Shown: in pieces, positions 2,207 to 17,055 of the stretch
Layout: each line of letters begins with the position of its first letter
How positions within the stretch are numbered: position 1 is the stretch's first letter
Source: Promethearchaeota archaeon
GTDB taxonomy: Archaea > Asgardarchaeota > Lokiarchaeia > Sigyniarchaeales > SOKP01
NCBI GenBank assembly: GCA_019057795.1
Contig: JAHLWS010000029.1
Location: 1-17,055, forward strand
Direction: 5' to 3'
DNA: 17,055 nucleotides
Notes under the pieces: generated by a model
What the model was told of the DNA's origin: nothing
The model's input: the letters and a program-made list of their open reading frames with translations, nothing else
Database searches by the model: none
Made by a program: the position numbers and the translations under genes

Positions 2207-2224
2207 GATAATTTCACAACTCAA

Positions 2225-3052
2225 TTATTTAATAGAAATTATGGAGTTATATCCAAATCCTAAAGATGTGCGAACTCCAATACCCGTAAATTCTGATAAG
2301 TAAACAAGTTTCCACATTAGAGTTCTCTCAAACGAGTTCCCTACAATTTTAAATGTGATATTTCCTACTTGGCCTTCTAAAGTAATGACTTTATTTTTAT
2401 CAATCGTGTTTGATATATAACCTCGTCTTTTCTGAGTGTAGTCTTGAACGATTCTTAGATATGGATATAGTTCTTCTGCTTCCAAGTTTACTATCCCGAG
2501 TTGTTTAAACTTTTCACATTGGTAATTGAGAAATGTTTCGGCAGTAAATTTATCAAGAGTTCTTTTTCTGGCATTATAAAAAAATGTTGGCGTTTCTAAT
2601 TTTACTGTAATTGTATCAATAGATTGAGGGACTTTATTTAAATTTCCGTGTTCAAATTCCACCCTTTCAATTATGAGTTTTAAACTGCCAATTTCGAGAG
2701 ATTCTTTTTCATTCACATATATTTTTATAAGCTCATGAATGTCGGAGTCAATAGTTTTAATATTGATATATCCCCTTTGGCCTCGCCTAATATGTGTAAA
2801 ACCCCTTCTCTCGGATTCTGGCTGTTTAAAATAAAATCTTAAATAAGAAAATGACCATGGTTTAACAAGTGTCGATTTATGATATTGATACATAATTTTT
2901 GGGTTTACTTGTGATAGGAGATTATAGAACGTTCCTTGTACTTTTGAATGATTCGTTAAAGGAATATCTGCATCATTTTGTGTAATAAGAATGAGTTTGC
3001 AGTTAACTGGTGTTATTTTTTTTCTAAGCTTTGTTCTTGTTTCATAATCCAA
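2225..3052 (-). CDS. cas6: CRISPR pre-crRNA endoribonuclease Cas6
   Basis: C-terminal G-rich loop FTGIGVRTSLGFG, PWSFSYL motif and LETPTFF strand; located at the end of the cas operon. Confidence 0.92.
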   Translation of the reverse strand: MDYETRTKLRKKITPVNCKLILITQNDADIPLTNHSKVQGTFYNLLSQVNPKIMYQYHKSTLVKPWSFSYLRFYFKQPESERRGFTHIRRGQRGYINIKTIDSDIHELIKIYVNEKESLEIGSLKLIIERVEFEHGNLNKVPQSIDTITVKLETPTFFYNARKRTLDKFTAETFLNYQCEKFKQLGIVNLEAEELYPYLRIVQDYTQKRRGYISNTIDKNKVITLEGQVGNITFKIVGNSFERTLMWKLVYLSEFTGIGVRTSLGFGYNSIISIK

Positions 3053-3145
3053 TTTTTCATCACTCTATAATTATTATTTTTTTTGAATAAAAGTACGAAT
3101 TTTTTTACCTTTCATATTTCATTTTTTTCATGAACTAACAAATAT

Positions 3146-3961
3146 TCAATTATATTCAAAATTCAGTAAACCCCTTGTTAAGAGCGAACTAAAAAGTTGA
3201 ATCTCTTGTACATCCTTAGCTGTATATTTAAATTTAATTTTATTATTCATAAAATCAATAGTTAAAGAATTGGAATTAAAAATTTTTTCTTTAAAGATCA
3301 GTTCTGAATCTATATTAGTATCTTGTAATATGAATTTATAATTCTCAAATAAATTATTTGGATTAAAAATAAAATCAAAAGTTGTAGGTTTTATTAAGAC
3401 TGGGTTTTTTTCTAAATTTAATTTTGATGTGAATTTTGGAAACGTCTTATAATTAAATAAGGGATGAAACAAGTATAAAGTATACTTTAATTCCTTATTT
3501 TGAATGGTATCTATAAAATCTTTCTCATTAAAGTCAATAATTGAATTAAAATAATTTTGCCATAGAAAATTATTATGTGAAAGTATCTTCATTTGAGTAT
3601 TTGAGTAAGGTGTCTCAAAATGAAATCCTTTTATTTTTAAATTAAAAACATTTGATTCTAGTATGGATTGGATAATATTTTGGAGAAGTATTAATTTTGG
3701 AACCAATTCCACAGCGTCATTATATAGAACCCATAAGAAATGGATAAGTTTGAATCGTTTTGAGACAGAATAATAAGCTTTGATATTTTGCTGTAATATT
3801 GAACTAATTAAGCTACACGCAGAACCCTCTTTTACACATCTTAAACACGACTTAAAATTTGGGCATAAATTAATTGTTTTTAGCGAAGTTTCAAACTCTT
3901 TATTTAAAACCCTTAATATATGCTCAAGAAAATATTGATTAATGCTTTTCTCTTCAGTCAA
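3146..3961 (-). CDS. Uncharacterised protein with N-terminal C-x5-C-x2-C-x6-C cluster; possible degenerate Zn-finger Cas6-like RAMP
   Basis: 271 aa, in the operon orientation. ILRVLNKEFETSLKTINLCPNFKSCLRCVKEGSAC, FLWVLYNDAVELVPKLI and TLYLFHPL recall Zn-finger (DUF2276-type) Cas6 segments, but there is no G-rich loop. The ORF is likely real; the family call is tentative. Confidence 0.45.
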   Translation of the reverse strand: MTEEKSINQYFLEHILRVLNKEFETSLKTINLCPNFKSCLRCVKEGSACSLISSILQQNIKAYYSVSKRFKLIHFLWVLYNDAVELVPKLILLQNIIQSILESNVFNLKIKGFHFETPYSNTQMKILSHNNFLWQNYFNSIIDFNEKDFIDTIQNKELKYTLYLFHPLFNYKTFPKFTSKLNLEKNPVLIKPTTFDFIFNPNNLFENYKFILQDTNIDSELIFKEKIFNSNSLTIDFMNNKIKFKYTAKDVQEIQLFSSLLTRGLLNFEYN

Positions 3962-4040
3962 TATTTCATATGAGGTAATAAATTTTAAGAATTTTATTTA
4001 AACTCTCCTCAAAATTAAATATTATGATTAAAAAATATTT

Positions 4041-4817
4041 CTAGTTCAGCTTAAAATAATCCGTATAATTTTTAGCTTCCACATCATCAGGAAACAGAAA
4101 ATCTTCTTTAGATTTTAATTCTTTAACTGTGGTCTTCTCTAATACGAACCTACCCATTCCAGTAGACTTTTTGCCACCAAAAGAAACAAATCCTAAATTA
4201 ATCATGTGAAAAAGCGCTTGTAGTAATTCAAATTCTTTTTGTTTGGTCTCTTGTGTGATGTTATTTATAATTATTTTAAATTCGAATTTTACTCCTGGTT
4301 GTAGAGTCTCTATAAAAAATAATGACCCATCCCGAGAAACTTGCTTCTCTCGATCGATCGCTATCCCGGGCTTTAAACCCGAATGCAATTCTTTGATTGT
4401 ATCTTCTACTGGAAAAGCATCAGAAATTATTATATGAGATGCCAAATCATTCCCTCCGAAAATACTACATACTACACAAGGGTCTTTAAACACTTTTTTT
4501 TCTTGTTCTACTGTGCAATATTTCTTTGGATATTCTTCACATATGTACTCTTTTTTGCTTTGTTTATTACCTAAGGATTTAGCAAATGCTTCTACTGCTG
4601 AACGAAAATTTCCTTTTATAGTGCTACTAGGAATATACGGTAAATTTAATGAGGTTCGTAAAATGGCGCTTTCAGGTGAAAAATTAATGTCACTGCCCCC
4701 AATTCCAATATGCATTTGTGTTGTTAATTTAATAACACCTTCAATAATTATTCGGTTCTTAATAATTGCCAAATCAGCACTTGACACATCTTCAATTGAT
4801 TTGTATGTTTTACTCAT
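4041..4817 (-). CDS. cas7: Type III-D Cas7-group RAMP (Csm3/Csx7 family)
   Basis: MHIGIG, PYIPSSTIKGNFRS, CVVCSIFG, ISDA, GIAIDRE, GGKKSTGMG motifs; ATGA overlap with the csx10 stop. Confidence 0.92.
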   Translation of the reverse strand: MSKTYKSIEDVSSADLAIIKNRIIIEGVIKLTTQMHIGIGGSDINFSPESAILRTSLNLPYIPSSTIKGNFRSAVEAFAKSLGNKQSKKEYICEEYPKKYCTVEQEKKVFKDPCVVCSIFGGNDLASHIIISDAFPVEDTIKELHSGLKPGIAIDREKQVSRDGSLFFIETLQPGVKFEFKIIINNITQETKQKEFELLQALFHMINLGFVSFGGKKSTGMGRFVLEKTTVKELKSKEDFLFPDDVEAKNYTDYFKLN

Positions 4818-6028
4818 ATTTTTTTTATCTCCTCCGACATTGGAAAATAAATTAAATTATATCCTAACTCTGAATAGTGGTTTAATCCGACAAATTCCAT
4901 ATAAGCAAGGGCTTCAATTATAGTTTCGTCTAAATCTTGATTAATTTTAAATTTATATAAGGATCCTGGGACTGCAGCTGTTATATGTGGTTTTGGTTGT
5001 TGAGTTTTATAGCTCCATCCTCCAAGTAGTTCTACATCTCCTAACGATTCTTTTAATTGAAATCTATTTTCTAAATTTGAAAGTTTAAGATTCATTTTAG
5101 TATTGACATAGTTTAACGCAGAATTTAAATCGATTTCAGGATTTGATATGATATTTTCATTGAGTTTTTCTAAGGCAAAAATATGGGTTTTTGCAGCAAG
5201 AACAAGTGAGTTCAGTTGACTCATCTCATTTAGCGTTTTTTTATTTTTTTTTATTTTTTCATGAATATCAAGCGGTTTTAAATCTATTCGTACTTTTCCA
5301 AATCCTCGAGATTTAGCTCTCCCTAATCGCAGGAAATTAATATTATTTAAATTATTAAGAACAGGATCATTACGTTCGAATACCAGATAACTCTCAAAAA
5401 TTGAACCTCGTTGTATATACCTATAATTAAATAAATATCCGGTAAGACTACTGTTTTTTGCATAATTAATACTTGTAGAAGTTGTTAACCCTATTTCAGG
5501 ATTCTTTTTCATATAATTGCATGATTTGCAATAATTTCCTCCGACAAGATCCATTGTGGTTTTTCGCTTGCATACTGGATTTTGACAGGTAGCTCGTATA
5601 TAAGGTTCTTCTTCAATTAACCACTCTTTAAGGTAATTAACACATTTTTTATCAGATTCACATCTTTTACATTGTTTAATTAAAGGATGGGTTGGTACTA
5701 AATCAGGATTTTGGCATTCTTTTTCATCTCCTTCATTATTTTCATCTTTCAGAAAAAGCCCGTTAGAAAGAGTAAATACATTTTGATAAAAGAATTGATA
5801 AAATTGACACTCTTCTTTTTTAACACATATTTCACAGTGCCCCCATAGTTCGCTTGTATCTTCAATTTGACATAACTTTGGTAATAATTCTGTTGCAATT
5901 CCTCCCCTTAATGTGATAGAGGGTATATAATCTAAAGTTTTATATAAATTATGATCTGGTGCGGTAAAACCTACTAATAATGGTGCTTCGAGAATAATTT
6001 TTACTCTAAAAAAGTTTAACTCAGTCAT
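4814..6028 (-). CDS. csx10: Type III-D Cas5-group RAMP (Csx10-like), cysteine-rich
   Basis: LEAPLLVG, LDYIPSITLRGGIA, LGRAKSRGFG, GGWS..PKP..AAVPGSLY, SELGYN: the two-RRM Csx10 pattern. Confidence 0.82.
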   Translation of the reverse strand: MTELNFFRVKIILEAPLLVGFTAPDHNLYKTLDYIPSITLRGGIATELLPKLCQIEDTSELWGHCEICVKKEECQFYQFFYQNVFTLSNGLFLKDENNEGDEKECQNPDLVPTHPLIKQCKRCESDKKCVNYLKEWLIEEEPYIRATCQNPVCKRKTTMDLVGGNYCKSCNYMKKNPEIGLTTSTSINYAKNSSLTGYLFNYRYIQRGSIFESYLVFERNDPVLNNLNNINFLRLGRAKSRGFGKVRIDLKPLDIHEKIKKNKKTLNEMSQLNSLVLAAKTHIFALEKLNENIISNPEIDLNSALNYVNTKMNLKLSNLENRFQLKESLGDVELLGGWSYKTQQPKPHITAAVPGSLYKFKINQDLDETIIEALAYMEFVGLNHYSELGYNLIYFPMSEEIKKI

Positions 6029-6662
6029 TAAATCCCATCTTTTTTAATAATTTTAATATTATATCATTATCTTGGGAAAACCCTTCAACTTTATTTATTT
6101 CAATGTCAATTAGCCCATTACCATTTCCAAAACTGCAAAATTTTAAATTATTTAAGGCAAAAATGATCAATAACTCTTCATTCTGAGCTAATTTTTTAGC
6201 TTCAAAGAAGGATTTAAATGAGATATTAGGAGGGATCTGTTCTTTGATAAACAAGCTCCCTCTTTTTGCCTTTCCCGAATCTCTTTCGATACTTGTTTGA
6301 GTAAAATACTGCAAATCAATACGACCCTCAGAAGTAGGAAAAAAATCTTCACAAAATATTTTTGATGGTTTATTATTGGCACCAAAAACTTTACATATTA
6401 TACAACCCTTACAAGAACTTAATTTATCAGTATGTACAGATTTACAGTAGTGCTCATCACCTACGATAAAGTGTGCGATTTGAACAGCACTTGATCGTAA
6501 TAAACCTTTAAAAGTAGTTGCAGGAATGCAAATCCTTTCTTTGCGATTAAATTTACGTCTTAATTGAATAATATCTGCAGACTGGAGAAATTGATTCTTA
6601 CCAGCACCAATTGTTAAATGGGTTTTTGAAATTAAGTTAAGATTCATCTTTAAATTTATCAT
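6021..6662 (-). CDS. cas7: Short Cas7-group RAMP
   Basis: LTIGAG, IPATTFKGLLRS, CIICKVFG, SIERDSGKAKRGSLFIKE, FGNGNG; ATGA overlap with the cas10 stop. Confidence 0.88.
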   Translation of the reverse strand: MINLKMNLNLISKTHLTIGAGKNQFLQSADIIQLRRKFNRKERICIPATTFKGLLRSSAVQIAHFIVGDEHYCKSVHTDKLSSCKGCIICKVFGANNKPSKIFCEDFFPTSEGRIDLQYFTQTSIERDSGKAKRGSLFIKEQIPPNISFKSFFEAKKLAQNEELLIIFALNNLKFCSFGNGNGLIDIEINKVEGFSQDNDIILKLLKKMGFND

Positions 6663-9223
6663 AATAAGCCTCCTGATAAGAATTTTAATAATTCTAAAGA
6701 ATCAAAAAGTAAGAAATCCTCTTTCTTCCCCTCTAGAAAGGAACTACCAATTAAATTGAAAAGCTTAATATAGGATGTTTTTCCTAATAATTCTTTTTGC
6801 CTTCCTGTTTGGTATAACACAAATGAAAGAGCCATCTGCTTTTCCTTGGCAAAATTTTTCGGATTAAATGAGAAAAATGCAGAAACTCGTTTACTTCTAT
6901 TTCTTAAATCTTTTAAAACAGATGGTTTGGAATCATTTTTGTCGTAAACTAACTTAATCTCCTCATTTACAAAATGATACAAGCTATCATAATTCTCCTC
7001 TAAAGTGAATTTTAACTGGTAGTCTTTTCCAATAATGTTGTTTATTACATATTGAATATCTTCTACCTCTTGAATACTTATTCCATTTTGTACGCTAATT
7101 TTAAACGGGCGTCTTGAAAAAACTCTCCTTGGATCTTTAGAATCTTTATCTTTTTTTACAAAATTGGGAACAGTTAACCCAGAAGAAAAACTTTGAAAAT
7201 CGATAACTCCCATTTCGTTATCTTCGCATAGTCTCCCCTCCTTTTTCGCATTCTTTAATAACAATCTTGATGTAGTTATTGCTGACCAGATTGGAAATTT
7301 ATTGGGACAGAGAAAAATTCCGGTAGATAAGGTACATTTTGTTCCCATTTTTTTATAAAATTCCTTGGTTAAGGTGAGTGCGACAGGAATTGCTAAATAT
7401 GCGGGGAGTAGTAATAAGATGTCATCTCCTCCAGAATAAATTTTTCCGATATCAAAACGCGCATAATCAAATTCATGATTATAAATGCTTTTAATCTTAT
7501 TTTCTCCTATAATTGTCTCAAGGATTTCTCTAACTGAATTGGAGATTCTAGTTATTCGAGAATATAAATCTGAAAGGGAGATTGATTTAGCGATAAATTC
7601 AGCCATTAAATTTCCATCTGCATTTAATATTGCTAATTTGTGAGGTTTGGGTACGTTTTCCTTTGAAATATCCTCTAATCGGACTCCGGAAATAAATTCC
7701 ATAAGATTTTGAGAGATATCTTTATAAATATTTTTCCAAATACCTTCTTGAAGACTTAATTTACGAACATCAGGATCTGGTAATTTAAATTTGTATAAAC
7801 ATGGTTTACAATAATATTTTAACTCCGTATCAGAAAAGGGTATTATTTCTGTTGCGATTTTACTTCCACAAGAATCACATAACCTAGAACTTCCGAAGAG
7901 CACATTTTTTTTTTCTTTTTTACTTAAATCGTTCTTTTTTGCCCCTATTTTAATCGCTAGTTTTGAATATAAATCTCCAAACGAATCCTCAAATTTTTGT
8001 TCTTTTTCGTCCACCTCATCAAAGAAATAAATATAATCTGTGGTCATCCATAGTCCTTCGTGCATAGCTTCGTAGAATATTGATTCAATAATACTTGCGA
8101 TTTCTTGAACTTGGGATCCTGGACAAAACAAAATAATATTTCCTCCACTACTGTAGATTATTTGTTCAGGATATAACCTCTTATCTTTGATTAGTTTAGT
8201 AACTAACACGTTAGAAAGGACATGGTCGAGAAGTTTACTTGCATTTCTTAATTCTTCTAACTTATGAACATGGTCCGTATATTCATGTATGTGTCTAACA
8301 TCTCCACGTAGTAAGGCGATAGTTCCATTTTTCTTATAATTTAATTTTACGGGTGGTTGATTTAATAACGCTTTCTCATAACCGCTTACAAATTGTTGGG
8401 TTAGTCTTTTAATCTCGTGCTCGTTAGTTTCCCAGAAATCATTGTTATCAAAATTTTCAATTATATTTTTTTCATTAGACAAAATATTTTTAGTTAGTTT
8501 CAAAAGTTGCTCTGAGGCTAACGATAATCTGCTTCCAAACCTTACGTAACGCGAAAGATTAGAAGAATTGTCATCTTGAATTCCTCTAATTACATCAATT
8601 ATTGTATTAAAAATCTCTTCAGAAAATAAGTTAGTAAAGTGTTTTTCAAATAATTCAATACTGTGATCAATTGAATTAAAGCGGGATAAAGGTTTTCCTA
8701 TTGCGTGGAAAAATGAACTAGTCCTTACGCATTGCATTTGAAGTTCAGAAATGTTTTCTGAGTCTTTTTTTTGCTTCGCTATACATACAGCTAATGCTGA
8801 AGTTGCAATTAGATGGATTAATAAAGACGAGGTATTTAATCCTGGACGATCATCAGCTGGAAATGTATTATAAAATTTTTCAGATAGCGTAAAAAATGTC
8901 TCACATTCTGATTTAATGCTCTCGGAAAAATTGTTAAAATTGGTCTCTAACCAATTAATTACCATTTCATTCCAATATTGTGATAATCCTCCAAATGTAA
9001 GCAGCACGAATAAGTCGTTAGCTTTCTCTAACTGGTTTACATTTTTAATTCCACCTTCGAAGAACAAGAGGAAAATCCTATTTAAAATACTTAAATATTC
9101 ATCCACAAAACCTATATCATTAGTAATATCTCTAACATCTTCAAACTTACCGATATTGGCTTCTTCATAATAATTTGGAATTAAAAAGCCACGAATATAG
9201 CTTTTTCTTGGTTTGTTATTCAA
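6659..9223 (-). CDS. cas10: Cas10 (type III-D) with intact GGDD Palm2 and degenerate HD domain
   Basis: PADDRPGLNTSSLLIHL (Sulfolobales III-D-like), Palm1 GDVRHIHEY and YSSGGNI, Zn finger CDSC/CKPC, ADGNLM, and YSGGDD (GGDD at 7421-7432). The HD motif reads FFHAIGKP. Confidence 0.96.
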   Translation of the reverse strand: MNNKPRKSYIRGFLIPNYYEEANIGKFEDVRDITNDIGFVDEYLSILNRIFLLFFEGGIKNVNQLEKANDLFVLLTFGGLSQYWNEMVINWLETNFNNFSESIKSECETFFTLSEKFYNTFPADDRPGLNTSSLLIHLIATSALAVCIAKQKKDSENISELQMQCVRTSSFFHAIGKPLSRFNSIDHSIELFEKHFTNLFSEEIFNTIIDVIRGIQDDNSSNLSRYVRFGSRLSLASEQLLKLTKNILSNEKNIIENFDNNDFWETNEHEIKRLTQQFVSGYEKALLNQPPVKLNYKKNGTIALLRGDVRHIHEYTDHVHKLEELRNASKLLDHVLSNVLVTKLIKDKRLYPEQIIYSSGGNIILFCPGSQVQEIASIIESIFYEAMHEGLWMTTDYIYFFDEVDEKEQKFEDSFGDLYSKLAIKIGAKKNDLSKKEKKNVLFGSSRLCDSCGSKIATEIIPFSDTELKYYCKPCLYKFKLPDPDVRKLSLQEGIWKNIYKDISQNLMEFISGVRLEDISKENVPKPHKLAILNADGNLMAEFIAKSISLSDLYSRITRISNSVREILETIIGENKIKSIYNHEFDYARFDIGKIYSGGDDILLLLPAYLAIPVALTLTKEFYKKMGTKCTLSTGIFLCPNKFPIWSAITTSRLLLKNAKKEGRLCEDNEMGVIDFQSFSSGLTVPNFVKKDKDSKDPRRVFSRRPFKISVQNGISIQEVEDIQYVINNIIGKDYQLKFTLEENYDSLYHFVNEEIKLVYDKNDSKPSVLKDLRNRSKRVSAFFSFNPKNFAKEKQMALSFVLYQTGRQKELLGKTSYIKLFNLIGSSFLEGKKEDFLLFDSLELLKFLSGGLL

Positions 9224-9250
9224 AAATTTTCAACTCTAAATGCGATTGGT

Positions 9251-9562
9251 TTAAAATATTATAAATTCTGAACTCGAACTTAATTTATCGTGGAGATATA
9301 TTCTTGCTTTCCCCTTTATTTTATGTTGTATAATTAACGAATTACTTAATTTGTTAAATTCCCAAGAGAAATACTTTTCAGTACTATTAATAAAACAATA
9401 GCCGAATCTTGAACCTTTGATTAATTTTTTAAAATTGTCGTCTATTTGAGGTTGCTTTAAGTATGTTTCTGTTAAGTCGTCCTCTATCAAAATGATACTA
9501 ATACCTAAACTCGAAACCTGTTCAATTTTTTCTATTAAACTATTTATCCCATTAGTTTCCAC
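9251..9562 (-). CDS. Small hypothetical protein inside the effector operon (possible reduced Csx19-like subunit)
   Basis: 103 aa, GTG start preceded by AGGGGA; fills the gap between cas7 and cas10 with 20- and 27-nt spacers. No confident family. Confidence 0.6.
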   Translation of the reverse strand: METNGINSLIEKIEQVSSLGISIILIEDDLTETYLKQPQIDDNFKKLIKGSRFGYCFINSTEKYFSWEFNKLSNSLIIQHKIKGKARIYLHDKLSSSSEFIIF

Positions 9563-9582
9563 TTTTCATATCCCCTTATACC

Positions 9583-10521
9583 TTAAGTTGTAGGTTCATT
9601 AAAATTTCTTATAATACTGCTAAAATTCTTATTAATTCCCTCTTTTATACTACTAATAAACATACTAACATTGAGATCCTTCTCATTGAAACCAAGATTA
9701 TCATAAGTAAATTTCATTACTTTTTTAATGCCCAATTTTATTTTTCCGAATTGAATGATTTCTCCATTAGCATCCTTTTGTGGAGAAAATTTGTGCATGC
9801 CAACGCGCAACATCCCATCTTTATGAAGGTTCATTCCTATCATTAATAAAGCTAAATCTTCGGGAGTTCCATTATTCAAGTTGATGGTAAATGAAAATTG
9901 GCTGTCTGGGGGAACTACTCTCTTTCGGTCAGTATATTTCGCAACAATCTCTTTCCGTTCTAGTTGGATTTCATTTACAGGCATAGCATCTGAAAATATC
10001 ACCCGCGAAGCTGAATTCGTGTTTCCGAATAAATCACACACTTTGCATTGGTATTCTGGATATTTTCTCGTTTTCCAATCCCATTTGGTGTCTTCTTTAC
10101 CGCGTGCTTCGGGGAAGTTTGAGTAATTAAAAATATTCAAAAAATTACGGATTTCGTTAATGGGTTTTGGATTAGTTTGCTTAATGAAACAGGAATAGAT
10201 TTCACCGCGATCGTTTGCTTTAAACGAATGTTCTAGGAAAAACCTTATCATTCCTTTCAGGGTAGAACCCGGGATATACGCTTTTCCATCAAGTAAAATT
10301 GAAGAGGACAAAGGCTCTATATGGGTTTGAATTTTGGCAAGCTTTGAATCCAAATCTAGAAGATCCTCAAAATCTTTGTCCTCTATTTGAAAAATTTCGT
10401 CCTTGGAACTTCCAATAAACAGGTAATTATCCTCCATTACTCTAAGATTGACTTTAAATTGGTAAAACGGTTTTGAAAACAACTCCCTGCTACTATTTTT
10501 AATTTTTCTTAGTTTCAACAA
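9583..10521 (-). CDS. cas7: Cas7-group RAMP (Csm5-like capping subunit)
   Basis: YLFIGS, YIPGSTLKGMIR, CKVCDLFG, SRVIFSDA, RVGMHKF...FGKI. Confidence 0.85.
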   Translation of the reverse strand: MLKLRKIKNSSRELFSKPFYQFKVNLRVMEDNYLFIGSSKDEIFQIEDKDFEDLLDLDSKLAKIQTHIEPLSSSILLDGKAYIPGSTLKGMIRFFLEHSFKANDRGEIYSCFIKQTNPKPINEIRNFLNIFNYSNFPEARGKEDTKWDWKTRKYPEYQCKVCDLFGNTNSASRVIFSDAMPVNEIQLERKEIVAKYTDRKRVVPPDSQFSFTINLNNGTPEDLALLMIGMNLHKDGMLRVGMHKFSPQKDANGEIIQFGKIKLGIKKVMKFTYDNLGFNEKDLNVSMFISSIKEGINKNFSSIIRNFNEPTT

Positions 10522-11380
10522 ATTTACTCCATACCTCCATAAAGTTATTAATTAAAGCTTGACTAAACTCTTCTCGACTCTTTTGTTTCAATTCAGTTAA
10601 ATTAAATATTACGTCTCTATCAACTCCATTTCCGCCTGAGATACTACTGATTTTAAAAGTTTCTGATGGGTGATCAATTAACGATTTATAATCAATTACA
10701 TCAGAATCCTCAAGTTTTTTTACTTCAATTTTATCAATTAGTATTTTGACTTGTCCCAATCCTGCTCTTTTTTTCCCACCAATTAAAATTACATTCTTAT
10801 TTATTAAATAAATTACGTTGAACAGTAATCCTATCAAATAATTGGGAAGATTGTCAATTTTAATTTGAAAATTAAAGAAGGAACCCGGATTGATGTGTTC
10901 AACTGTAAAAATTCCCCCCCCCATAGTTGTCCCATCTATTCTATTTATTGCAATACCTGGGGCTGTGTCAAATTTAACCGCCGCTAAATCGATAGGTATA
11001 CAATCGTATAGAGTTACATTACTTGAATAGCTTAAACCCCCAAAAATTTTACAAGCTATACATAAATTGTTAATTTCATGCCTAATCTTTTCTACATTTT
11101 TATCTCTAGTTGCGTAAGATATTTCTTTACTAATTTCTGAGCACGAACTTCTTCTTGCTAACATACATGTATAAATTCCTAAAGATTTTAGTATAAATTC
11201 TATTGAAGATCGAAATATCCCTTTCAAAGAAGATCCTGGGATATAGGGAAGATCAATATTTCCCATTTTTATTCGAATTAAAACACTTTCTGATCCCTCA
11301 AAATTAGCTTCAGCATTACCGCTTCCCACATGAACCCTACCTATTGTTTCGAGTATCCCCGAGATTCTAACTGATCGCAT
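10499..11380 (-). CDS. cas7: Cas7-group RAMP (Csx7 family)
   Basis: VHVGSG, PYIPGSSLKGIFRS, CIACKIFG, GIAINR, IGGKKRAGLG; the true start may be an in-frame CTG at 11407. Confidence 0.92.
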   Translation of the reverse strand: MRSVRISGILETIGRVHVGSGNAEANFEGSESVLIRIKMGNIDLPYIPGSSLKGIFRSSIEFILKSLGIYTCMLARRSSCSEISKEISYATRDKNVEKIRHEINNLCIACKIFGGLSYSSNVTLYDCIPIDLAAVKFDTAPGIAINRIDGTTMGGGIFTVEHINPGSFFNFQIKIDNLPNYLIGLLFNVIYLINKNVILIGGKKRAGLGQVKILIDKIEVKKLEDSDVIDYKSLIDHPSETFKISSISGGNGVDRDVIFNLTELKQKSREEFSQALINNFMEVWSKFVETKKN

Positions 11381-11412
11381 GAATTCACTATGATCTAAAT
11401 AAGTCAGAGTTA

Positions 11413-12192
11413 TTAATCACCTAAAAATTTAAGTAGATCTATAGCTTGGATATTATAAAACTCGTGAAGGTCTTCAGGTCTTATCTCTATTATCTTCGCA
11501 TCTGCAATCTTAATGTTTCCTAAACCCGTAGATCTCTTTCCCCCTACATAAATCCATCCTTCTAGTAATTTTTTTAGGAGAAATTTAATCGCGCGCGTTA
11601 TTATATTGTCTTCTTTTAAATCGATATTAATAATTTGTAGCTCAAAGCTAAAAATTCCACCTGGTTGCAAGGACTCTACTGGGAAAACAGCGCCCCTTTG
11701 AGCCGCACCAGTTATACGATTTATCGCAACTCCTGGTTTATTTTTTATTCCTGGAAACTTATCCATGTCCAATATAGCATCTGACACAATTATATGCGAG
11801 CCTACTTGAGAATTACCAAATATCCGACAAGCTAAACATATATTTTCGATTTCTTTCGTGTTGCAACTATTTCTGTTTTCATAGACATAGCAAACATTCT
11901 GAAAATGCTCAGGTTTATAAGTTTTCTCTTGAATTTTTAAATATTTCTCAATTTCAGTTCTAAATATACCTTTTAAGCTAGATCCTGGGATATAAGGTAC
12001 ATCAGTATTTCCAATCTTTAACCGTATTAAAGGGTTATCAATTGAAAACTCTGCTTCTATCCCTCCTGCTCCAACATGTAATTGAGAAATGTTAATTATA
12101 TTTCCTTTAATAACATATCTACAATCAAATTGTGCAAAATTATCTGGTTTTTTTAATATATGATTATCATTATAATCTTCTGTTTTTTCCAT
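11413..12192 (-). CDS. cas7: Cas7-group RAMP (Csm3/Csx7 backbone, catalytic Asp retained)
   Basis: LHVGAG...IDNPLIR, PYIPGSSLKGIFR, CLACRIFG, VSDA, VGGKRSTGLG; GGTGAGG SD upstream. Confidence 0.93.
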   Translation of the reverse strand: MEKTEDYNDNHILKKPDNFAQFDCRYVIKGNIINISQLHVGAGGIEAEFSIDNPLIRLKIGNTDVPYIPGSSLKGIFRTEIEKYLKIQEKTYKPEHFQNVCYVYENRNSCNTKEIENICLACRIFGNSQVGSHIIVSDAILDMDKFPGIKNKPGVAINRITGAAQRGAVFPVESLQPGGIFSFELQIINIDLKEDNIITRAIKFLLKKLLEGWIYVGGKRSTGLGNIKIADAKIIEIRPEDLHEFYNIQAIDLLKFLGD

Positions 12193-12209
12193 TATAACCT
12201 CACCACGAT

Positions 12210-12644
12210 TTAATGTCGTTTTCTCTTTCTTAAAGCAGAACTTTGAAAACTACTAATTATTGATTTAAATGCGTTTTCAAGATTTATATCACCAAATAAA
12301 TTTATATTTTTAACAGCTTCAAAAAGCCACTTTAATAAGCCTAAATATTCTCGAACTTGCCGTTTTTTTTCGATATCTTGTATTTCTTTATTCCCTACTC
12401 TTTGCTCTAGCATAATATTTTTTAAAGTTTCAACGATAGTCGCAGTTGATGCGTTTTTAAAATATTTTCTTTCCCTCTGTTTCATAACAAACGCCATTAT
12501 AAGCATAATTGTGTTTTCGATATCTCTTTTTAAATTAGTGTTATAAATACCTAACAATTGATTCACTTGGTTATTTTTAACTCGATCTTGTTTACATAAG
12601 ATAGCTGCTAAACTTGCTCTGTTAAATATTTCTTTATACTCCAT
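12210..12644 (-). CDS. csm2: Small subunit Cas11 (Csm2-like, type III-D)
   Basis: 144 aa, predicted all-helical, with FVMKQRER and REYLGLLKWLFEA motifs; first effector gene, as in Sulfolobales III-D loci. Confidence 0.78.
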   Translation of the reverse strand: MEYKEIFNRASLAAILCKQDRVKNNQVNQLLGIYNTNLKRDIENTIMLIMAFVMKQRERKYFKNASTATIVETLKNIMLEQRVGNKEIQDIEKKRQVREYLGLLKWLFEAVKNINLFGDINLENAFKSIISSFQSSALRKRKRH

Positions 12645-12796
12645 TAAATTTCCTCTTTTTTTTTATTGGTAAATATCTATTGGATTTTATTATTTTTAAA
12701 TCTTTTATAAAAATGTCAAATCTAAGTAATTTTACAGTAACCATTCAATATAAATACATTTCTTCGATCATGTTAAAAGAAGAGCTACCATTACTG

Positions 12797-13003
12797 TTAA
12801 AACCCTCCCCCTTGTATTTTAATTATCATACCTTCTTCCCAGATATTATGTAATTCTTCAGATTTTATAGATACATCGTATATCTGACCGCATTCTAAAC
12901 AAATATCTTCTTCAATAAATTCAAGACAGTTAGGACACATAAAAAATTGCCCAAACTCTTTAGACTCGTACACAAAAACCGCTCTGGAATATAAAATTGT
13001 CAA
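12797..13003 (-). CDS. Small zinc-ribbon protein (CxxC-x8-CxxC)
   Basis: 68 aa, CPNC...CLECG; strong GAGGTGA SD upstream of the TTG start. Confidence 0.72.
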   Translation of the reverse strand: MTILYSRAVFVYESKEFGQFFMCPNCLEFIEEDICLECGQIYDVSIKSEELHNIWEEGMIIKIQGGGF

Positions 13004-13026
13004 TCTTGTTTTTTCACCTCTATTAA

Positions 13027-13203
13027 TTAACTAATTCTTATTTTTAACGAATATTTTGTCTGAAGCTTTTTTTTATTAACAGGATCGATACCACAACCCT
13101 CTGAAAGTTCCTGGTATATGCTTCTTTCCACCCATTTTTCAAATAATCTCTTTGCGTATATGCTGGATTTAGAACTGTCTTTCTGAATTTTTTTTTCGCT
13201 CAT
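13027..13203 (-). CDS. Small basic hypothetical protein, probably leaderless
   Basis: ATG at 13203 lies about 23 nt downstream of a TTTAAATA box (13233-13226), giving 58 aa; followed directly by the SD of the Zn-ribbon gene. Confidence 0.5.
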   Translation of the reverse strand: MSEKKIQKDSSKSSIYAKRLFEKWVERSIYQELSEGCGIDPVNKKKLQTKYSLKIRIS

Positions 13204-13225
13204 AAATAACAAATGATCATTCTCA

Positions 13226-13254
13226 TATTTAAATGTTTCTCACCTTGATATGAG
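13226..13254 (-). promoter_or_regulatory. Archaeal promoter (TTTAAATA) with adjacent CTCA-N8-TGAG operator A (13239-13254)
   Basis: Minus strand reads CTCAtatcaaggTGAG-aaaca-TTTAAATA. Confidence 0.72.
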
Positions 13255-13281
13255 TTTTTCCCCAAAATTACATTTCCATAG

Positions 13282-13297
13282 CTCAGTACTTTATGAG
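13282..13297. promoter_or_regulatory. Palindromic operator B, CTCA-N8-TGAG
   Basis: CTCAgtactttaTGAG. Confidence 0.68.
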
Positions 13298-13400
13298 GGA
13301 AACCAGTATTACGAAAATCCAATATATGGTTATATAAGCATTTTAAGTCAACAATTCTAAAATTACTCGCCTAAAAAAACAAATATTATTCTCACACTAA

Positions 13401-13416
13401 CACATAATACTATGAG
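13401..13416. promoter_or_regulatory. Degenerate operator C, CACA-N8-TGAG
   Basis: CACAtaatactaTGAG, one mismatch to the consensus. Confidence 0.4.
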
Positions 13417-13542
13417 AAGAAAAATAAATCGATTAAGGAATTTATGCAACAGAAACTATAAAATTGTGCCCAAAACCTCTCGTGGTACGAGCACTTAATA
13501 AGAGTAACATTTGTTCTCATCTCTATATTGTCATCAATAGAG

Positions 13543-14196
13543 TTAAATCCAAATTATTTTTCTCCCACTGAAATAACAACGCCTAAGGTTATATTCTGTG
13601 CTCAGATTTAAGAGAGCGATAGAAACCGGTTTTGTACCACCTGTTATTTCACAGACAATTTCGTAATTTTTGATCTCTTCTTTAAAAATCTTTTCTAACT
13701 CTTCATAAATTTGCTGATAATTTTCTCTTAGAACTTTTTGATAATCGAATTCTCTCACAACAATTTCTACTTCTTCGTATTTGCTTTTATCTAATTTACT
13801 AAACTCCTCGTGGTAATCTGGGCTTGTGAATAACACGTATTTTCTCGGGATGATACTAATCTCTTCAAAAGCTGCGAGAACGTCATTGAACAGCGTAGGA
13901 ATTCCTAACCCACCAATAAGGCAAATTGGAACAGTTTTTTTATAATAGTTCCTTAATGGCTGTCTTGCGATTGCATTTAACGTATAAGAACCTCTTTCCG
14001 TTTTTTCTAGCATACCATCTTTTACTAATCTTTTAAGATGATGATCCGCGCGTTTTGACATGTTTTTATTAATAAGATAGCTGCTAATTTCATTGAATTC
14101 GTAAATTTCTTTGCTATCGTCTTCAAGAAACATTAAAATAATTTTTTCTCTATTTTTATCCTCAAAACTTTTTTCAATTGTTCTTTTCTCTATCAT
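13543..14196 (-). CDS. wHTH-CARF transcriptional regulator (Csa3-like domains in reversed order)
   Basis: N-terminal winged helix (FNEISSYL...ADHHLKRLVKDGMLEKTERGSYTL); C-terminal CARF (CLIGGLG, KYVLFTS, CEITGGTKPVSIAL, RCYFS). Confidence 0.88.
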   Translation of the reverse strand: MIEKRTIEKSFEDKNREKIILMFLEDDSKEIYEFNEISSYLINKNMSKRADHHLKRLVKDGMLEKTERGSYTLNAIARQPLRNYYKKTVPICLIGGLGIPTLFNDVLAAFEEISIIPRKYVLFTSPDYHEEFSKLDKSKYEEVEIVVREFDYQKVLRENYQQIYEELEKIFKEEIKNYEIVCEITGGTKPVSIALLNLSTEYNLRRCYFSGRKIIWI

Positions 14197-14319
14197 TTTT
14201 AAAAGTTTTATATCAATTCATTTTAACATGTATAAATCTCATTATCTCATAATGGTCAAAAACCTTAAATAGTTTTATTTCGTAATTTATTAATCGCTTA
14301 AGAATTGCTAAAATATATA

Positions 14320-14337
14320 TCTCATACAATAATGAGA
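14320..14337. promoter_or_regulatory. Palindromic operator D, TCTCAT-N6-ATGAGA
   Basis: TCTCATacaataATGAGA; a minus-strand TTTAAATA lies at 14346-14339, immediately beside it. Confidence 0.7.
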
Positions 14338-14466
14338 CTATTTAAAGTTATGTAAAAAAAAACAAAAAAATTCAGTTAAATTGCATAACGAGTATATTTA
14401 TATGGCTTTATTACTTCAACTATTCTCCAAAAATCTAAAATAGTTGTTTAATCCAAAAATCTAGAA

Positions 14467-14495
14467 TCTCATCAATTTATGAGAAAGTTTAAATA
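14467..14495 (+). promoter_or_regulatory. Operator E (14467-14484) plus TATA box (14488-14495) of the crn2-cas2-cas1-cas4 operon
   Basis: TCTCATcaatttATGAGA-aag-TTTAAATA. Confidence 0.74.
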
Positions 14496-14577
14496 TCTTA
14501 ATTTTTATTATCATATTAAATACAATATTCTTTCTACTTGGAGGGTAAAAGATAAGAAATCATTCAAAACTTAGGAG

Positions 14578-14925
14578 ATGTTAATGACAGAACAAAAATC
14601 ACAAGTTCTTAAAATAGATTATATTTTGAACGCTCCAATCTTAACGAATTGGGGCGTATACAAGTATTTTTTATATTCTCATAAAACCAGCAACTTGGAA
14701 CTATCTAACGCAATTTCCGCCGTAGGACACGCTTCAACCGCAAAATTAATGTCGAAACTTTTAAATTATCCGATTAAAGTCAATAGAATTAAAATACAAA
14801 TGAAAGTTGGAGAAACTGCGTTAGTGTTTTCTCTTAAAGATAGACAACCAGAAGGTATCGTCTTGAGTTTGAAAGATATTAAAAAATTAAAATACAAATT
14901 AGGTATATTAAAAAGGGTTAAATAA
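14578..14925 (+). CDS. crn2: DUF1874 / AcrIII-1-family cA4 ring nuclease (Crn2)
   Basis: YILNAPIL, SAVGHASTA (catalytic GH), VNRI, RQPEG motifs; 115 aa; AGGAG SD favours the ATG at 14584. Confidence 0.92.
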   Translation: MLMTEQKSQVLKIDYILNAPILTNWGVYKYFLYSHKTSNLELSNAISAVGHASTAKLMSKLLNYPIKVNRIKIQMKVGETALVFSLKDRQPEGIVLSLKDIKKLKYKLGILKRVK

Positions 14926-15039
14926 ACATATTTTTTATTTGATGGAAGCACTTAAGAAAATCGTCCAACCACTTGAAATTAGAGTTTTGAATAATAACCC
15001 AAAAGACTTAATGTAAAATGGATTAGAAGGTGAAAAAGC

Positions 15040-15302
15040 ATATTTATTGTAGCTTATGATATTTCAGACAATAAAAGGTTGCGAGTAATTGCAAAGATTT
15101 GCGAAAATTATTTAATACGAGTACAAAAGTCTGTTTTTGAGGGAGAATTGAGTAAAAGTCAATTATACGCTCTGAAAAAAGATTTGAAAAAAGAAATAAA
15201 TAAAGAGGAAGACTTGTTATGGTTTATTTTATAAGGCGTACTTCAATAAGAAAAAAAATACAATTAGGGAGAAAAGTTGAAGATCCCTTTGTCATATTTT
15301 AA
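15040..15302 (+). pseudogene. cas2: cas2, frameshifted and with an ATA start (missed by the ORF track)
   Basis: AGGTGA SD at 15028-15033, then ATA-FIVAYDISDNKRLRVIAKICENYLIRVQKSVFEGEL...EED. That frame stops at 15232-15234; the Cas2-like tail VMVYFIRRTSIRKKIQLGRKVEDPFVIF* is in the -1 frame (15216-15302). One base is missing at about 15214-15215; the repaired length is 87 aa. Confidence 0.88.
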
Positions 15303-15343
15303 TTTAAAATATATTAATAGTGGATTAAAATGGTGAAAATTAG

Positions 15344-16363
15344 ATGAAAGAAATGTTATACATTATGAATTCTAATGTTGAACTCTTAAAATCTAAAAAT
15401 ATTATAAAATGCTTAAGACCAGATCCAGATGAGCCAGGTAAATTTAAATTGCAAATGATTCCAATCTCCCGATTGAATTCTATTGAAGTATATGGAAATG
15501 TTAAAATTTCAACTCCGCTGTTAAAATTATGTAATAAAGTCAAAATTCCATGCTATTTTAATACTTATTATGGTGTTCCGATAGGCAAATTTGTCCCTGA
15601 AAATTCGAGGTCAAGCGTAATTCGATTGAAGCAATATGAAACCTTTCTTAATACGCAAAAAAAATTACATATAGCAAAAGCGATTGTAAGTAAAGCGACT
15701 CAAGAACGAAATATTATTTTACTAAAATACGATAAGAACAAAACAATTAAGAAAAACATATCTAGAATAACTCAGTATGTAAAAAAAATAAGCGGAGTAA
15801 AAAGCGTCTCAGAACTTCGCGGAATCGAAGGGAATATTATGAAAAATTATTTCGAATGTTTTTCAAAATTACTTTATCATTTACCATTTAATGGAAGATC
15901 ACAACGTCCACCGAAAGATGAAGGGAATTCTATTTTAAGTTTCGGTAATGTTTTATTATATAACACTGTTCGCTCTGAAGTTTATAGATCCGCCCTTGAT
16001 CCATTGGTAGGGTTTCTACACGAACCCCATGAAAATAGAGCGTCTTTAGCACTTGATATAGCAGAAATATTTCGTCCAATAATCGTAGATAATTTGATAT
16101 TACATCTTGACCATAAAAAAAATCTTTTAACAAATCATTTTGATAGGGACGAAATGAAATGTTATTTGAACCAAAAAGGGAAAAAGATTTGGATAAAACA
16201 GTTTAAAGAGCGACTGCGATCATCTATAAGATATACGCCACTTAAGCGAAACATTGCAATTCAAGAAGAAATAAAACTTGAATGTTATAATCTTATAAAA
16301 TACATTTCAGGAGAAAAGAAAGAATATATTCCAATTAACTTCAATAATTATTTGAGGTATTAA
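15344..16363 (+). CDS. cas1: Cas1 integrase (I-B-like)
   Basis: LRGIEG, RSQRPPKD..NSILSFGN, GFLHEP, SLALDIAEIFRP; catalytic E/H/E present. Confidence 0.97.
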   Translation: MKEMLYIMNSNVELLKSKNIIKCLRPDPDEPGKFKLQMIPISRLNSIEVYGNVKISTPLLKLCNKVKIPCYFNTYYGVPIGKFVPENSRSSVIRLKQYETFLNTQKKLHIAKAIVSKATQERNIILLKYDKNKTIKKNISRITQYVKKISGVKSVSELRGIEGNIMKNYFECFSKLLYHLPFNGRSQRPPKDEGNSILSFGNVLLYNTVRSEVYRSALDPLVGFLHEPHENRASLALDIAEIFRPIIVDNLILHLDHKKNLLTNHFDRDEMKCYLNQKGKKIWIKQFKERLRSSIRYTPLKRNIAIQEEIKLECYNLIKYISGEKKEYIPINFNNYLRY

Positions 16364-16920
16364 TGATAATCATGTTTACACACCAATATATTGAACCACA
16401 CCAAGTAAATGCGTTTGCATATTGCAAAAGGAAATGGTACTATCAGAACAGGTTAAAATTACAAATTATTAACGATCACATGGAAATTGGGTCCTACATT
16501 AAAGAGCACCATTGGATGAAAACCATCAAACGAAAGGAAATCTATCTCATGTCTAATAAATGGAAATTAAAAGGAATGTGTGATTATATAATTGAAGAAA
16601 ATGGTTTCCAAATTCCTATAGAAATCAAAAAAGGCAAGTGTTCTGCTGTAAAACCCTACAAAAACGATGTAATGCAATTATTATGTTATGTGTTATTATT
16701 AGAAGAAAATTTAGGAATCAAATACACACATGGATATATTCTTTACGTAGGATCAAAACGGAAATTCACGGTAAATATCACACCTAACTTGAGAAAGAAA
16801 ATACAAAATTACTTCAAAGAGATTAAATCTTATTTACGGAACGGAAAAATGCCAGAACTTCAAAGCAACAAAATTTGTTGTGTAGGATGTTCTTTTGAAG
16901 AATATTGTTGGTTTGAATAA
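16363..16920 (+). CDS. cas4: Cas4 RecB-like nuclease
   Basis: YCKRKWY, GMCDY, PIEIKKG, QLLCY, C-terminal CxxCxxxxxC; TAATG coupling to cas1. Confidence 0.95.
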   Translation: MIIMFTHQYIEPHQVNAFAYCKRKWYYQNRLKLQIINDHMEIGSYIKEHHWMKTIKRKEIYLMSNKWKLKGMCDYIIEENGFQIPIEIKKGKCSAVKPYKNDVMQLLCYVLLLEENLGIKYTHGYILYVGSKRKFTVNITPNLRKKIQNYFKEIKSYLRNGKMPELQSNKICCVGCSFEEYCWFE

Positions 16921-16942
16921 GCTAACGATGAAAAGAAGAATG

Positions 16943-16981
16943 GAAACATTTAAATAGGTAGACTTCACATTTATAAATGAG
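16943..16981 (+). promoter_or_regulatory. Promoter (BRE/TATA) with a degenerate operator; possible CRISPR leader
   Basis: GAAACATTTAAATA at 16943-16956 is identical to the 14-mer of the minus-strand promoter at 13239-13226; CACA-tttataaa-TGAG at 16966-16981. Confidence 0.45.
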
Positions 16982-17055
16982 TTAAGTTTCTACCGTGATC
17001 GATAGAGGTGACGGTAAAAACCGAATAAAAACGCAATTTATGAGGAGTACAGTAC

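Follow-up and report, generated by a model that had tools for sequence, protein, structure and literature searches.

To our knowledge, Csa3 is the only family of CARF transcription factors that has been studied. The Csa3a palindrome of Sulfolobales, CAPPa, reads TCCC-N8-GGGA (PMC8699464; the system is also described in PMC4333418 and PMC5587795), and the letters TCA-N8-TGA, which the initial annotation of the present locus had given for it, were wrong. As far as the available part of the source describes it, the family carries an N-terminal CARF domain and a C-terminal wHTH domain (PMC8699464). It has been reported that cA4 binds to the Csa3 protein, while altered DNA binding in vitro was not demonstrated (PMC8844856, PMC8699464). 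Csa3b of Sulfolobus islandicus, also a CARF-wHTH protein, binds palindromic repeats in cas promoters and represses interference genes, and it also affects both Cmr (type III-B) and adaptation and can bind an analogue of cA4 (PMC5389559; PMC7480081). The wHTH-WYL defence repressors such as CapW, according to the accessible portion of their description, are located beside an immune system, repress it and release it on an infection-related signal (PMC11662680).

We analysed a 17,055-base stretch of Lokiarchaeial DNA, referred to here as the window, and an exact search for CTCA-N8-TGAG revealed four matches, at 13239-13254, 13282-13297, 14321-14336 and 14468-14483, and no others. All four are intergenic and lie in the stretches 13213-13542 and 14197-14577, which comprise 711 bp in total. 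When the window was shuffled with its dinucleotides preserved, 0.15 sites were expected, and four were reached in none of 200 shuffles. The features of the locus are as follows.

1319-13203, minus strand: type III-D-like effector operon, from its gene content by ORFs and domain matches
13226-13233, minus strand: TATA box TTTAAATA of the effector operon, from the sequence and an invariant block in alignment A2
13239-13254, no strand: site A, CTCACCTTGATATGAG, from the exact search, 5 bp upstream, as read on the minus strand, of the effector-operon TATA box
13282-13297, no strand: site B, CTCAGTACTTTATGAG, from the exact search, its centre 43 bp from that of site A
13401-13416, no strand: site C, the CACA variant CACATAATACTATGAG, from the sequence and a position-weight scan
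13543-14196, minus strand: regulator gene P0001, 217 aa, modelled as wHTH (residues 3-87) and CARF (residues 88-217)
14237-14249, minus strand: tandem direct repeat TGAGATAATGAGA, 41 bp upstream of the regulator ATG
14321-14336, no strand: site D, CTCATACAATAATGAG, with the extended form TCTCAT-N6-ATGAGA, 2 bp downstream of a TATA box pointing at the regulator
14339-14346, minus strand: TATA box at site D, TTTAAATA on the minus strand and TATTTAAA on the plus strand, from the sequence and the spacer alignment
14468-14483, no strand: site E, CTCATCAATTTATGAG, with the extended form TCTCAT-N6-ATGAGA, 4 bp upstream of the crn2-cas1-cas4 TATA box
14488-14495, plus strand: TATA box TTTAAATA of crn2-cas1-cas4, from the sequence and the spacer alignment
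14578-16920, plus strand: crn2, cas1 and cas4, with Pfam matches to STIV_B116-like (7.9e-21), Cas1 (4.7e-79) and Cas4 (7.9e-26)
16921-17055, plus strand: CRISPR leader, with a TATA box at 16949-16956 and, after a gap of 9 bp, site F, CACATTTATAAATGAG, at 16966-16981

The initial annotation had listed the same four perfect palindromes at the same coordinates, and the exact search recovered all of them. Its CACA variants at 13401 and 16966 were found as well (13401-13416 and 16966-16981), its chance rate of about 8e-6 per position agrees with the 8.4e-6 given by base composition, and the gaps of 5 bp and 4 bp that it gave between sites A and E and identical TTTAAATA boxes can be read off the sequence.

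The motif is rare in the genome and is specific in its spacing. Across 4.95 Mb there were 26 exact CTCA-N8-TGAG matches against 42 expected from composition, and eight of the 26 were at regulator- or CRISPR-linked promoters. The best intergenic matches of the position-weight scan were mostly in CRISPR-linked DNA (contigs C29, C3, C83 and C19) and at a promoter duplicated on contigs C55 and C74, while a match at C40:4236 was rejected as chance since it adjoins sugar epimerase genes. The 21.4 kb of DNA that flank the regulator in 17 non-redundant Lokiarchaeial loci contained 16 copies of the N8 palindrome, whereas zero or one match was obtained with every other spacing from 2 to 14 and with each control (everted and reversed-letter). 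Bias was also seen at positions that had played no part in site selection, with T before CTCA in 75% of the sites and T after it in 79%; TCTCAT-N6-ATGAGA is the extended consensus and CTCA-N8-TGAG the core. When the strict 18-mer TCTCAT-N6-ATGAGA was counted in the 161 genomes of the class, it occurred about 0.3 times per genome, its count separated regulator-positive from regulator-negative genomes at most weakly, and it was present on the regulator's own contig in only two regulator-positive genomes (G074 and G152). The informative measure is the enrichment of the motif close to the regulator, rather than the number of 18-mers per genome.

It is very improbable that the palindromes are something other than operators, whether chance products of AT-rich DNA, RNA hairpins or terminators, or inverted-repeat remnants of mobile elements. 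The DNA is indeed AT-rich and of low complexity, and the extended arms would permit a 6-bp stem at sites D and E, but the shuffling result and the restriction of the enrichment to the N8 spacing argue against such an origin. An RNA element was rejected because the predicted hairpins were weak (-1.9 to -5.3 kcal/mol), three of the four being indistinguishable from shuffles, because no Rfam family matched, and because the variants were uncompensated. The arms are conserved in sequence, beyond complementarity, and the variant sites (CGCA, CACA and TGCG) are changed in one arm only and never compensated; together with the weak hairpins, this fits protein-DNA recognition and not an RNA stem. Moreover, most of the sites lie upstream of TATA boxes and would not be transcribed.

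We then consider the regulator protein. In sequence searches, Pfam gave only a marginal CARF_Card1 match (residues 155-208, 25.1 bits), NCBIfam gave only sub-threshold matches to TIGR02710 and AbiEi and did not place the protein in the curated Csa3/cas_HTH families, and a PDB sequence search with the family profile gave no significant match, including none to Csa3. The AF2 model is confident, with a pLDDT of 94. The CARF fold is indicated by Foldseek matches to Cam1, Card1, Can2 and Csm6 (E 1e-5), and residues 88-217 of the model match CARF structures at Z 12-15 (VIA), resembling the cA4-bound CARF domains of Cdn1, Can2, Card1 and Csa3 at Z 12-15; the Csa3 match (Z about 12; 6wxq and 2wte) was aligned to Csa3 residues 1-131. 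For the wHTH region, residues 3-87, there was one structural match, CadC 3f72 (Z 10.3), and no sequence-family match to the ArsR/SmtB type. In the model, the wHTH domain precedes the CARF domain. Across the regulator family there is little or no variation in the recognition helix R-x-D-x-H-L or in the CARF loops GGLG and TGGTK. From the modelled fold, cA4 is the putative ligand.

The site follows the regulator gene across the class. An exact site was present within 250 bp upstream of the regulator in nine of the 16 other loci, and in about 12 of the 16 when one-mismatch or lower-scoring variants were included, the background rate of sites scoring at least 12 being 1e-5 per bp. It is kept beside orthologous regulators whose protein identity falls to about 40%, a distance at which the flanking intergenic DNA can no longer be aligned. 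In all six aligned regulator-crn2 spacers, which are otherwise unalignable, the sole conserved island is site D together with its TATA box, and in most orthologous loci the regulator is preceded by an equivalent TATA-site pair. Site A is kept in loci L016 (7070) and L028 (1237) and is degenerate on C83 (9443), site B is kept in L016 (7027) and has a CGCA variant on C83 (9486), and site C is kept in L016 (6909), L028 (1116) and C83 (9607). Site E is identical in the putative C3 paralogue, and in L016 and L017 a one-mismatch variant precedes a TATA box. In L011, L009 and L019 the regulator has no full palindrome upstream, only half-sites or direct repeats, and in the Thermoproteota loci L014 and L015 nothing recognisable was found upstream of the regulator family member. 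The direct repeat TGAGATAATGAGA is present on the regulator strand, 40-100 bp upstream of the start, in C3, L008, L011, L016 and L018, and has only eight copies on both strands of the 4.95 Mb genome.

The initial annotation had proposed that these sites define a regulon around the wHTH-CARF gene, and had named a motif common throughout the genome, or one not conserved at orthologous loci, as grounds against it. The 26 matches in 4.95 Mb and the persistence of the motif beside regulator orthologues down to about 40% identity support the proposal, in which binding is predicted. The palindromes could still be regulatory but read by a different DNA-binding protein, either another CARF-HTH regulator or a host factor, with the wHTH-CARF gene merely as a target. 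We regard this as improbable. The link between the sites and the wHTH-CARF protein is one that we infer, and sites are also found at promoters on other contigs (C55/C74 and C19); however, the site accompanies the regulator gene in distant loci, among them contigs of 1.5-3 kb with little other content (L010, L021, L037 and L039), and the recognition helix is conserved in step with the half-site. The regulator is present in 9 of the 161 class genomes and absent from all 40 remaining genomes of its genus, so that the co-location would not be explained by a host factor common to many genomes. In each of the four genomes of the class that have crn2, a member of the regulator family is encoded on the crn2 contig. 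Taken as a whole, the palindromes are very probably operators of the adjacent 217-aa wHTH-CARF protein.

The candidate targets comprise the type III effector operon and crn2-cas1-cas4, together with a variant type III operon in the putatively paralogous locus and genes on other contigs. The effector operon comprises two small ORFs, a 144-aa ORF, three RAMP genes, a 103-aa ORF and cas10, followed by a RAMP gene, a csx10-like gene, a RAMP gene, a 271-aa ORF, cas6 and a PHP-domain gene, and its Cas10 carries GGDD at residue 598. The crn2 gene (14578-14925), whose true start is probably the ATG at 14584, is a B116/DUF1874 ring-nuclease homologue with both the DUF1874 match and the GH motif. The PDB sequence matches of its product are AFV3-109 and STIV B116, whose alignments keep the GH motif, and 6scf, and the activity is predicted from these. 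The predicted source of the signal (GGDD Cas10) and its predicted sink (GH-motif Crn2) would both be encoded in the candidate regulon. The target gene at C55/C74 and the site-preceded gene of L023 are not homologous. The contig ends where the first CRISPR repeat should start, and on C3 the leader sequence (site at 6039) directly adjoins an 18-repeat CRISPR array, of which the transcript-strand repeats each end in ATTGAAAC.

Detailed comparison of the promoters revealed two arrangements. At the target promoters the order is site, 3-5 bp and TATA box, with 11 bp at the duplicated C55/C74 promoter, while at the regulator's own promoter it is TATA box, 2-3 bp and site, the site being placed between the TATA box and the start. 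Site, AAAG or AAAC, and TATA box is an arrangement common to the target promoters of the window, L016, L020 and L028, and L023 has the same arrangement with a different spacer of 4-5 bp. The leader variant, site F, is placed just downstream of the leader TATA box. The mRNA of the effector operon is probably leaderless, since its TATA box ends 22 bp before the ATG at 13203. In divergent spacers, including that of site D in the window, the direction of the TATA box is ambiguous because TTTAAA-type boxes are nearly symmetric. In L012, L038 and L039, however, the regulator is preceded by a gene of the same orientation and the site falls between the TATA box and the regulator start, so the TATA-site pair must belong to the regulator. 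The autorepression geometry that the initial annotation had claimed for site D is strengthened by these three loci, where the adjacent TATA box serves only the regulator.

Here, we need to consider that the same sites and protein may work differently, with the regulator acting as Csa3a does and repressing only its own gene, a reading that we find possible but on the unlikely side. Consistent with it, the target sites lie upstream of the TATA box rather than over the start, and at C55/C74 the 11-bp gap places the site outside the BRE position. The additional sites B and C, far upstream of site A, resemble cooperative upstream activating sites, and this arrangement counts against a repressor model. 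On the contrary, the gap at most targets is only 3-5 bp, so that the proximal half-site occupies the position where the BRE should be. In addition, the TATA boxes have the perfect consensus TTTAAATA and do not suggest a weak activator-dependent promoter, the leader site is downstream of its TATA box, and the modelled wHTH domain of the regulator, by its single structural match, appears closest to ArsR/CadC-type repressors. When a BRE consensus was sought in 353 TATA-plus-ORF promoters of the genome, there was no positional signal, and for this reason the argument on the sign of regulation stays weak.

Based on these observations, we lean slightly towards an explanation in which the palindromes are operators and a cA4-released repressor controls all of these promoters. 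The two recognition helices of the regulator dimer would contact half-sites with a centre-to-centre distance of 12 bp, and the unliganded dimer would repress all site-bearing promoters by keeping TFB or RNA polymerase away. The GGDD-bearing Cas10 would make cyclic tetra-adenylate, which would bind to the CARF domains and release the dimer, and this release would induce more effector complex, crRNA, adaptation genes, Crn2 and the repressor itself. The Crn2 ring nuclease would then destroy the signal, giving a self-resetting loop. Release controlled by the ligand is not a safe extrapolation, since cA4 left the DNA binding of Csa3 unchanged in vitro (PMC8844856, PMC8699464). More tentatively, and with some doubt, we propose that an inverted wHTH-CARF receptor of cyclic oligoadenylates may govern an entire type III CRISPR locus in Asgard archaea as its master switch, one messenger and one operator jointly controlling the signal-making effector, the ring nuclease, spacer acquisition, crRNA production and the receptor itself. 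We know of no CRISPR system for which a closed self-resetting transcriptional feedback loop of this kind has been described.

The question touched by this locus is how cyclic oligoadenylates control transcription, and it offers a cleaner test case, with a small regulator, perfect and strongly conserved probable operators at several promoters and a fixed TATA register. The candidate regulon holds both the signal synthase (Cas10) and the signal-degrading enzyme (Crn2), which makes it a testable example of an alarm molecule that would switch a whole immune locus on or off. If the explanation is true, this would be the first defined operator and regulon for an Asgard archaeal defence regulator and the first ring-nuclease gene under a cOA sensor, and the operator-regulator pair could be used as a cOA-responsive genetic switch.

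When the locus is compared with the described systems, CapW is similar in having an N-terminal wHTH followed by a C-terminal ligand-sensing domain, but, to the extent covered by the accessible portion of its description, it is bacterial, its sensor is a WYL domain binding single-stranded DNA rather than CARF, and its promoter architecture is unrelated (PMC11662680). Csa3b can be likened to the Lokiarchaeial regulator as a CARF-wHTH factor at palindromes in cas promoters, where binding of the Lokiarchaeial protein is predicted, but it differs in the order of CARF then wHTH, in its sites and in repressing jointly with Cascade; no ring-nuclease gene is reported in its regulon, whereas the Lokiarchaeial candidate regulon has crn2. 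The closest likeness is to Csa3a. Both regulators are CARF-plus-wHTH factors encoded inside a CRISPR locus, the Lokiarchaeial protein being a predicted dimer, and the CARF folds are similar (Z about 12 to 6wxq and 2wte, from the model). Both palindromes have 4-bp arms and an N8 spacer, occur next to the BRE/TATA of the adaptation cassette as well as within CRISPR leaders, are virtually missing from other promoters, and track the presence of their regulator; in the Lokiarchaeial case site E precedes crn2-cas1-cas4, site F is in the leader, and the motif is rare genome-wide. The differences are as clear. The arms are CTCA/TGAG and not TCCC, the modelled domain order is reversed, with wHTH 3-87 then CARF 88-217, the Csa3 sequence models do not match the protein, and the gap to the TATA box is 3-5 bp at the Lokiarchaeial targets, whereas CAPPa lies 12 bp upstream of the BRE. 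Finally, the Csa3a system is of type I-A, while the present one is type III-D-like in an Asgard host, and its candidate regulon, unlike that of Csa3a, includes the type III effector operon, the Crn2 ring nuclease and the regulator's own gene.

The initial annotation had reported four perfect CTCA-N8-TGAG palindromes around a wHTH-CARF regulator gene, with CACA variants at 13401 and 16966. We recovered both variants and exactly four perfect sites in the window, starting at 13239, 13282, 14321 and 14468, where 0.15 are expected, and none of 200 dinucleotide-preserving shuffles reached four. All four sites are non-coding and lie within 711 bp flanking the 217-aa gene on both sides.

13239-13254 and 13282-13297: sites A and B, effector-operon side
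13401-13416: site C, CACA variant
13543-14196, minus strand: regulator gene (217 aa), flanked by both palindrome-bearing non-coding stretches
14237-14249, minus strand: TGAGA-N3-TGAGA, an element of the window's subgroup (also in contig C3, L008:5911, L011:5903, L016:5948 and L018:1108)
14321-14336: site D, regulator promoter
14468-14483: site E, crn2-cas1-cas4 promoter
16966-16981: site F, CRISPR-leader variant

The motif is not common genome-wide, since the source assembly (4.95 Mb, 31% GC, 87 contigs, the window being one entire contig, C29) contains 26 exact matches versus 42 expected from base composition. Promoter DNA linked to the regulator or to CRISPR accounts for eight of the 26, and the others are mostly within long open frames. 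By the names given to homologues, the assembly falls in the Lokiarchaeia/Promethearchaeota. We then compared 21 related loci drawn from collections of genomes and metagenomes, with more from genomes of the class. Of the 16 other non-redundant loci, 9 had an exact site no more than 250 bp upstream of the regulator, and about 12 had a site when one-mismatch or lower-scoring variants (CGCA, TGCG, TGCA) were included. Across the DNA flanking the regulator in 17 loci (21.4 kb in total), we counted 16 palindromes with N8 spacing; all other spacings between 2 and 14 gave 0-1 each, as did the everted and the reversed-letter patterns. In the genome-wide spacing comparison N8 showed no preference. Bias at positions outside the site-selection criteria extended the consensus to TCTCAT-N6-ATGAGA. 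When regulator-crn2 spacers were aligned, the sole island common with loci of a 42%-identical regulator was site D with its TATA box. The shuffles, spacing controls and ortholog controls exclude a chance origin of the palindromes.

To the left of the regulator, the minus strand carries a type III-D-like effector operon, in which two small ORFs come first and which contains several RAMP genes, a csx10-like gene, cas10 with GGDD at residue 598, cas6 and a PHP-domain gene. To the right, the plus strand carries a B116/DUF1874 homologue (crn2), then cas1 and cas4. The cA4 ring nucleases Crn2 and AcrIII-1 belong to the DUF1874 family; the window homologue retains the GH motif in alignments with AFV3-109 and STIV B116, and 6scf was also matched. 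Because a stop codon directly follows the first ATG of crn2 in the C3 copy (window equivalent 14578-14586), the second ATG (window 14584) is the likely start, giving a 113-aa product. A CRISPR leader takes up the final 135 bases of the window, and the identical sequence in C3 directly abuts an 18-repeat array; since every repeat on the transcribed strand there terminates in ATTGAAAC, the leader was assigned to this side of the array.

Contigs C83 and C3 overlap, and when joined they give a second copy of the locus in the same assembly, in the following order.

PIN-like gene, then a type III effector operon unlike the window's
within this operon: three RAMP fusions (753, 460 and 691 aa), with a cold-shock domain in the 691-aa one
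within this operon: a Cas10-like protein of 540 aa, with KGDD in place of GGDD
degenerate sites A', B' and C', then cas6, then a 225-aa CARF protein
regulator (95% identical to the window's), then perfect sites D' and E', then crn2
leader with site F', then the array

Sites A, B and C, degenerate in this copy, are all retained in locus L016. The first 30 bases are common to C29 and C83, so the pair could reflect strain variation instead of paralogy; in either case, the same operator set precedes different effector cargo. Just past the regulator stop codon, 51 nt of the window (13441-13491) are 88% identical to the cas6 3' end in C83. This stretch seems to be left over from an ancestral arrangement of regulator, cas6, operators and effector operon, which persists in C83 and L028.

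At target promoters, the site is followed by 3-5 bp (often AAAG or AAAC) and then by a TATA box, as found at sites A and E of the window and of L016, in L028 and L020, at two L023 sites and on contig C19. At the regulator's own promoter the order is opposite, with the TATA box, 2-3 bp and the site, and then, in most loci, 35-130 bp to the ATG. The autorepression geometry proposed for the regulator gene gained support from L012, L038 and L039, where the upstream gene is co-directional, so that the TATA box serves the regulator only and the site falls between it and the transcription start. The leader site lies 9 bp after its TATA box, and its own spacer is TTTATAAA. In six loci, the tandem direct repeat TGAGA-N3-TGAGA precedes the ATG by 40-100 bp on the strand that encodes the regulator. 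It has only 8 copies in the 4.95 Mb genome and might represent another kind of operator that uses the same half-site. That the palindromes act as RNA structure is unlikely: predicted hairpins are weak, variant sites lack compensating changes, the sites gave no Rfam match, and many of them are positioned upstream of promoters. The palindrome is an operator-like element tightly coupled to the regulator gene and core promoter elements.

When the whole genome was scanned with a position-weight matrix and intergenic matches were ranked, the best were sites D and E with their C3 copies, a promoter on contigs C55 and C74, site A, a C19 site and the two leader sites. The duplicated promoter (C55:42051 and C74:562) reads CTCATAATCACATGAG, 11 bp, TTTAAATA; both contigs end at the same base inside the gene behind it, whose partial product (168 aa) matched no Pfam family. 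The C19 site, TCGCAT-N6-ATGAGT (L030, region 1-540), is followed by 3 bp, a TATA box, about 30 bp and the start codon (ATG) of an RVT_N fragment of 62 aa, with transcription directed at the array. It lies just past the trailing CRISPR repeats and trailer; C19, which opens with four repeats of the window's array family, is probably the continuation of that array. An intergenic match on contig C40 adjoins sugar epimerase genes and is probably due to chance. In the distant locus L023 (4760-4840), a site and TATA box precede a gene of 176 aa, weakly similar to PIN/NYN, which comes after a Cas_NE0113 (Csx15-like) gene; therefore, the regulon may include ancillary RNases.

The AF2 model of the regulator is confident (pLDDT 94) and predicts a CadC-like wHTH at residues 3-87 (Z 10.3) and a CARF domain at residues 88-217, with Cdn1, Can2, Card1, Csm6 and Crn1 among the matches (Z 12-15). 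Since cA4-bound Csa3 aligns with this CARF domain through its residues 1-131 (Z about 12), the predicted domain order is opposite to that of Csa3. The family is small, with 41 clusters in a large protein collection; of the 161 genomes of the class, 9 carry it, and it was found in none of the 40 further genomes belonging to the same genus. Source annotations say "hypothetical protein" or HTH regulator, nothing more specific. In a 27-sequence alignment, R49, D51, H53 and L54 of the predicted recognition helix are invariant, and the CARF loops GGLG, TSP and TGGTK are invariant or nearly so. CARF-only paralogues of 135-146 aa, without the wHTH, occur in three genomes (G023:C158, L044; G024:C92, L040; G031:C79, L046), where they adjoin crn2 or stand divergent from a full-length regulator. 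A role as sponges or as ring nucleases is conceivable.

Because the sites are conserved and co-located with the regulator gene, and the recognition helix is conserved too, we suggest that a wHTH-CARF dimer very probably binds the palindromes. Reading by another DNA-binding protein is disfavoured, because the site accompanies the regulator gene even on very short contigs. As for the sign of regulation, which is less secure than binding, we favour repression at all sites: the dimer on its operators would repress all linked promoters, and cA4 would relieve this repression. First, a site between TATA box and start, as at the regulator promoter, is the classical archaeal repression geometry. Second, the proximal half-site at the targets occupies the expected BRE position. 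Third, the TATA boxes are perfect consensus. Finally, the modelled wHTH appears ArsR-like. The main rival combines Csa3a-like activation at the targets with autorepression of the regulator gene, a reading favoured by the Sulfolobales precedent, by the upstream position of sites B and C, and by the gap of 11 bp at C55/C74. For relief of repression, cA4 is the likely ligand, given the CARF fold, a Cas10 with GGDD and the Crn2-family gene adjoining the regulator; published work presents the AcrIII-1/Crn2 family as cA4 ring nucleases (PMC8844856).

Literature searches found no description of the wHTH-CARF family or the CTCA-N8-TGAG motif. The TCA-N8-TGA palindrome given for Csa3a in the initial annotation has to be corrected, since the published CRISPR-associated promoter palindrome (CAPPa) is TCCC-N8-GGGA (PMC8699464). 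The window motif shares the architecture and placement of CAPPa, but its letters differ and it stands in closer register to the TATA box. Unlike Csa3a, the window regulator has an inverted domain order, belongs to an unrelated sequence family and resides in an Asgard archaeon, and its candidate regulon takes in a ring nuclease and the regulator's own gene as well as genes of the type III effector.
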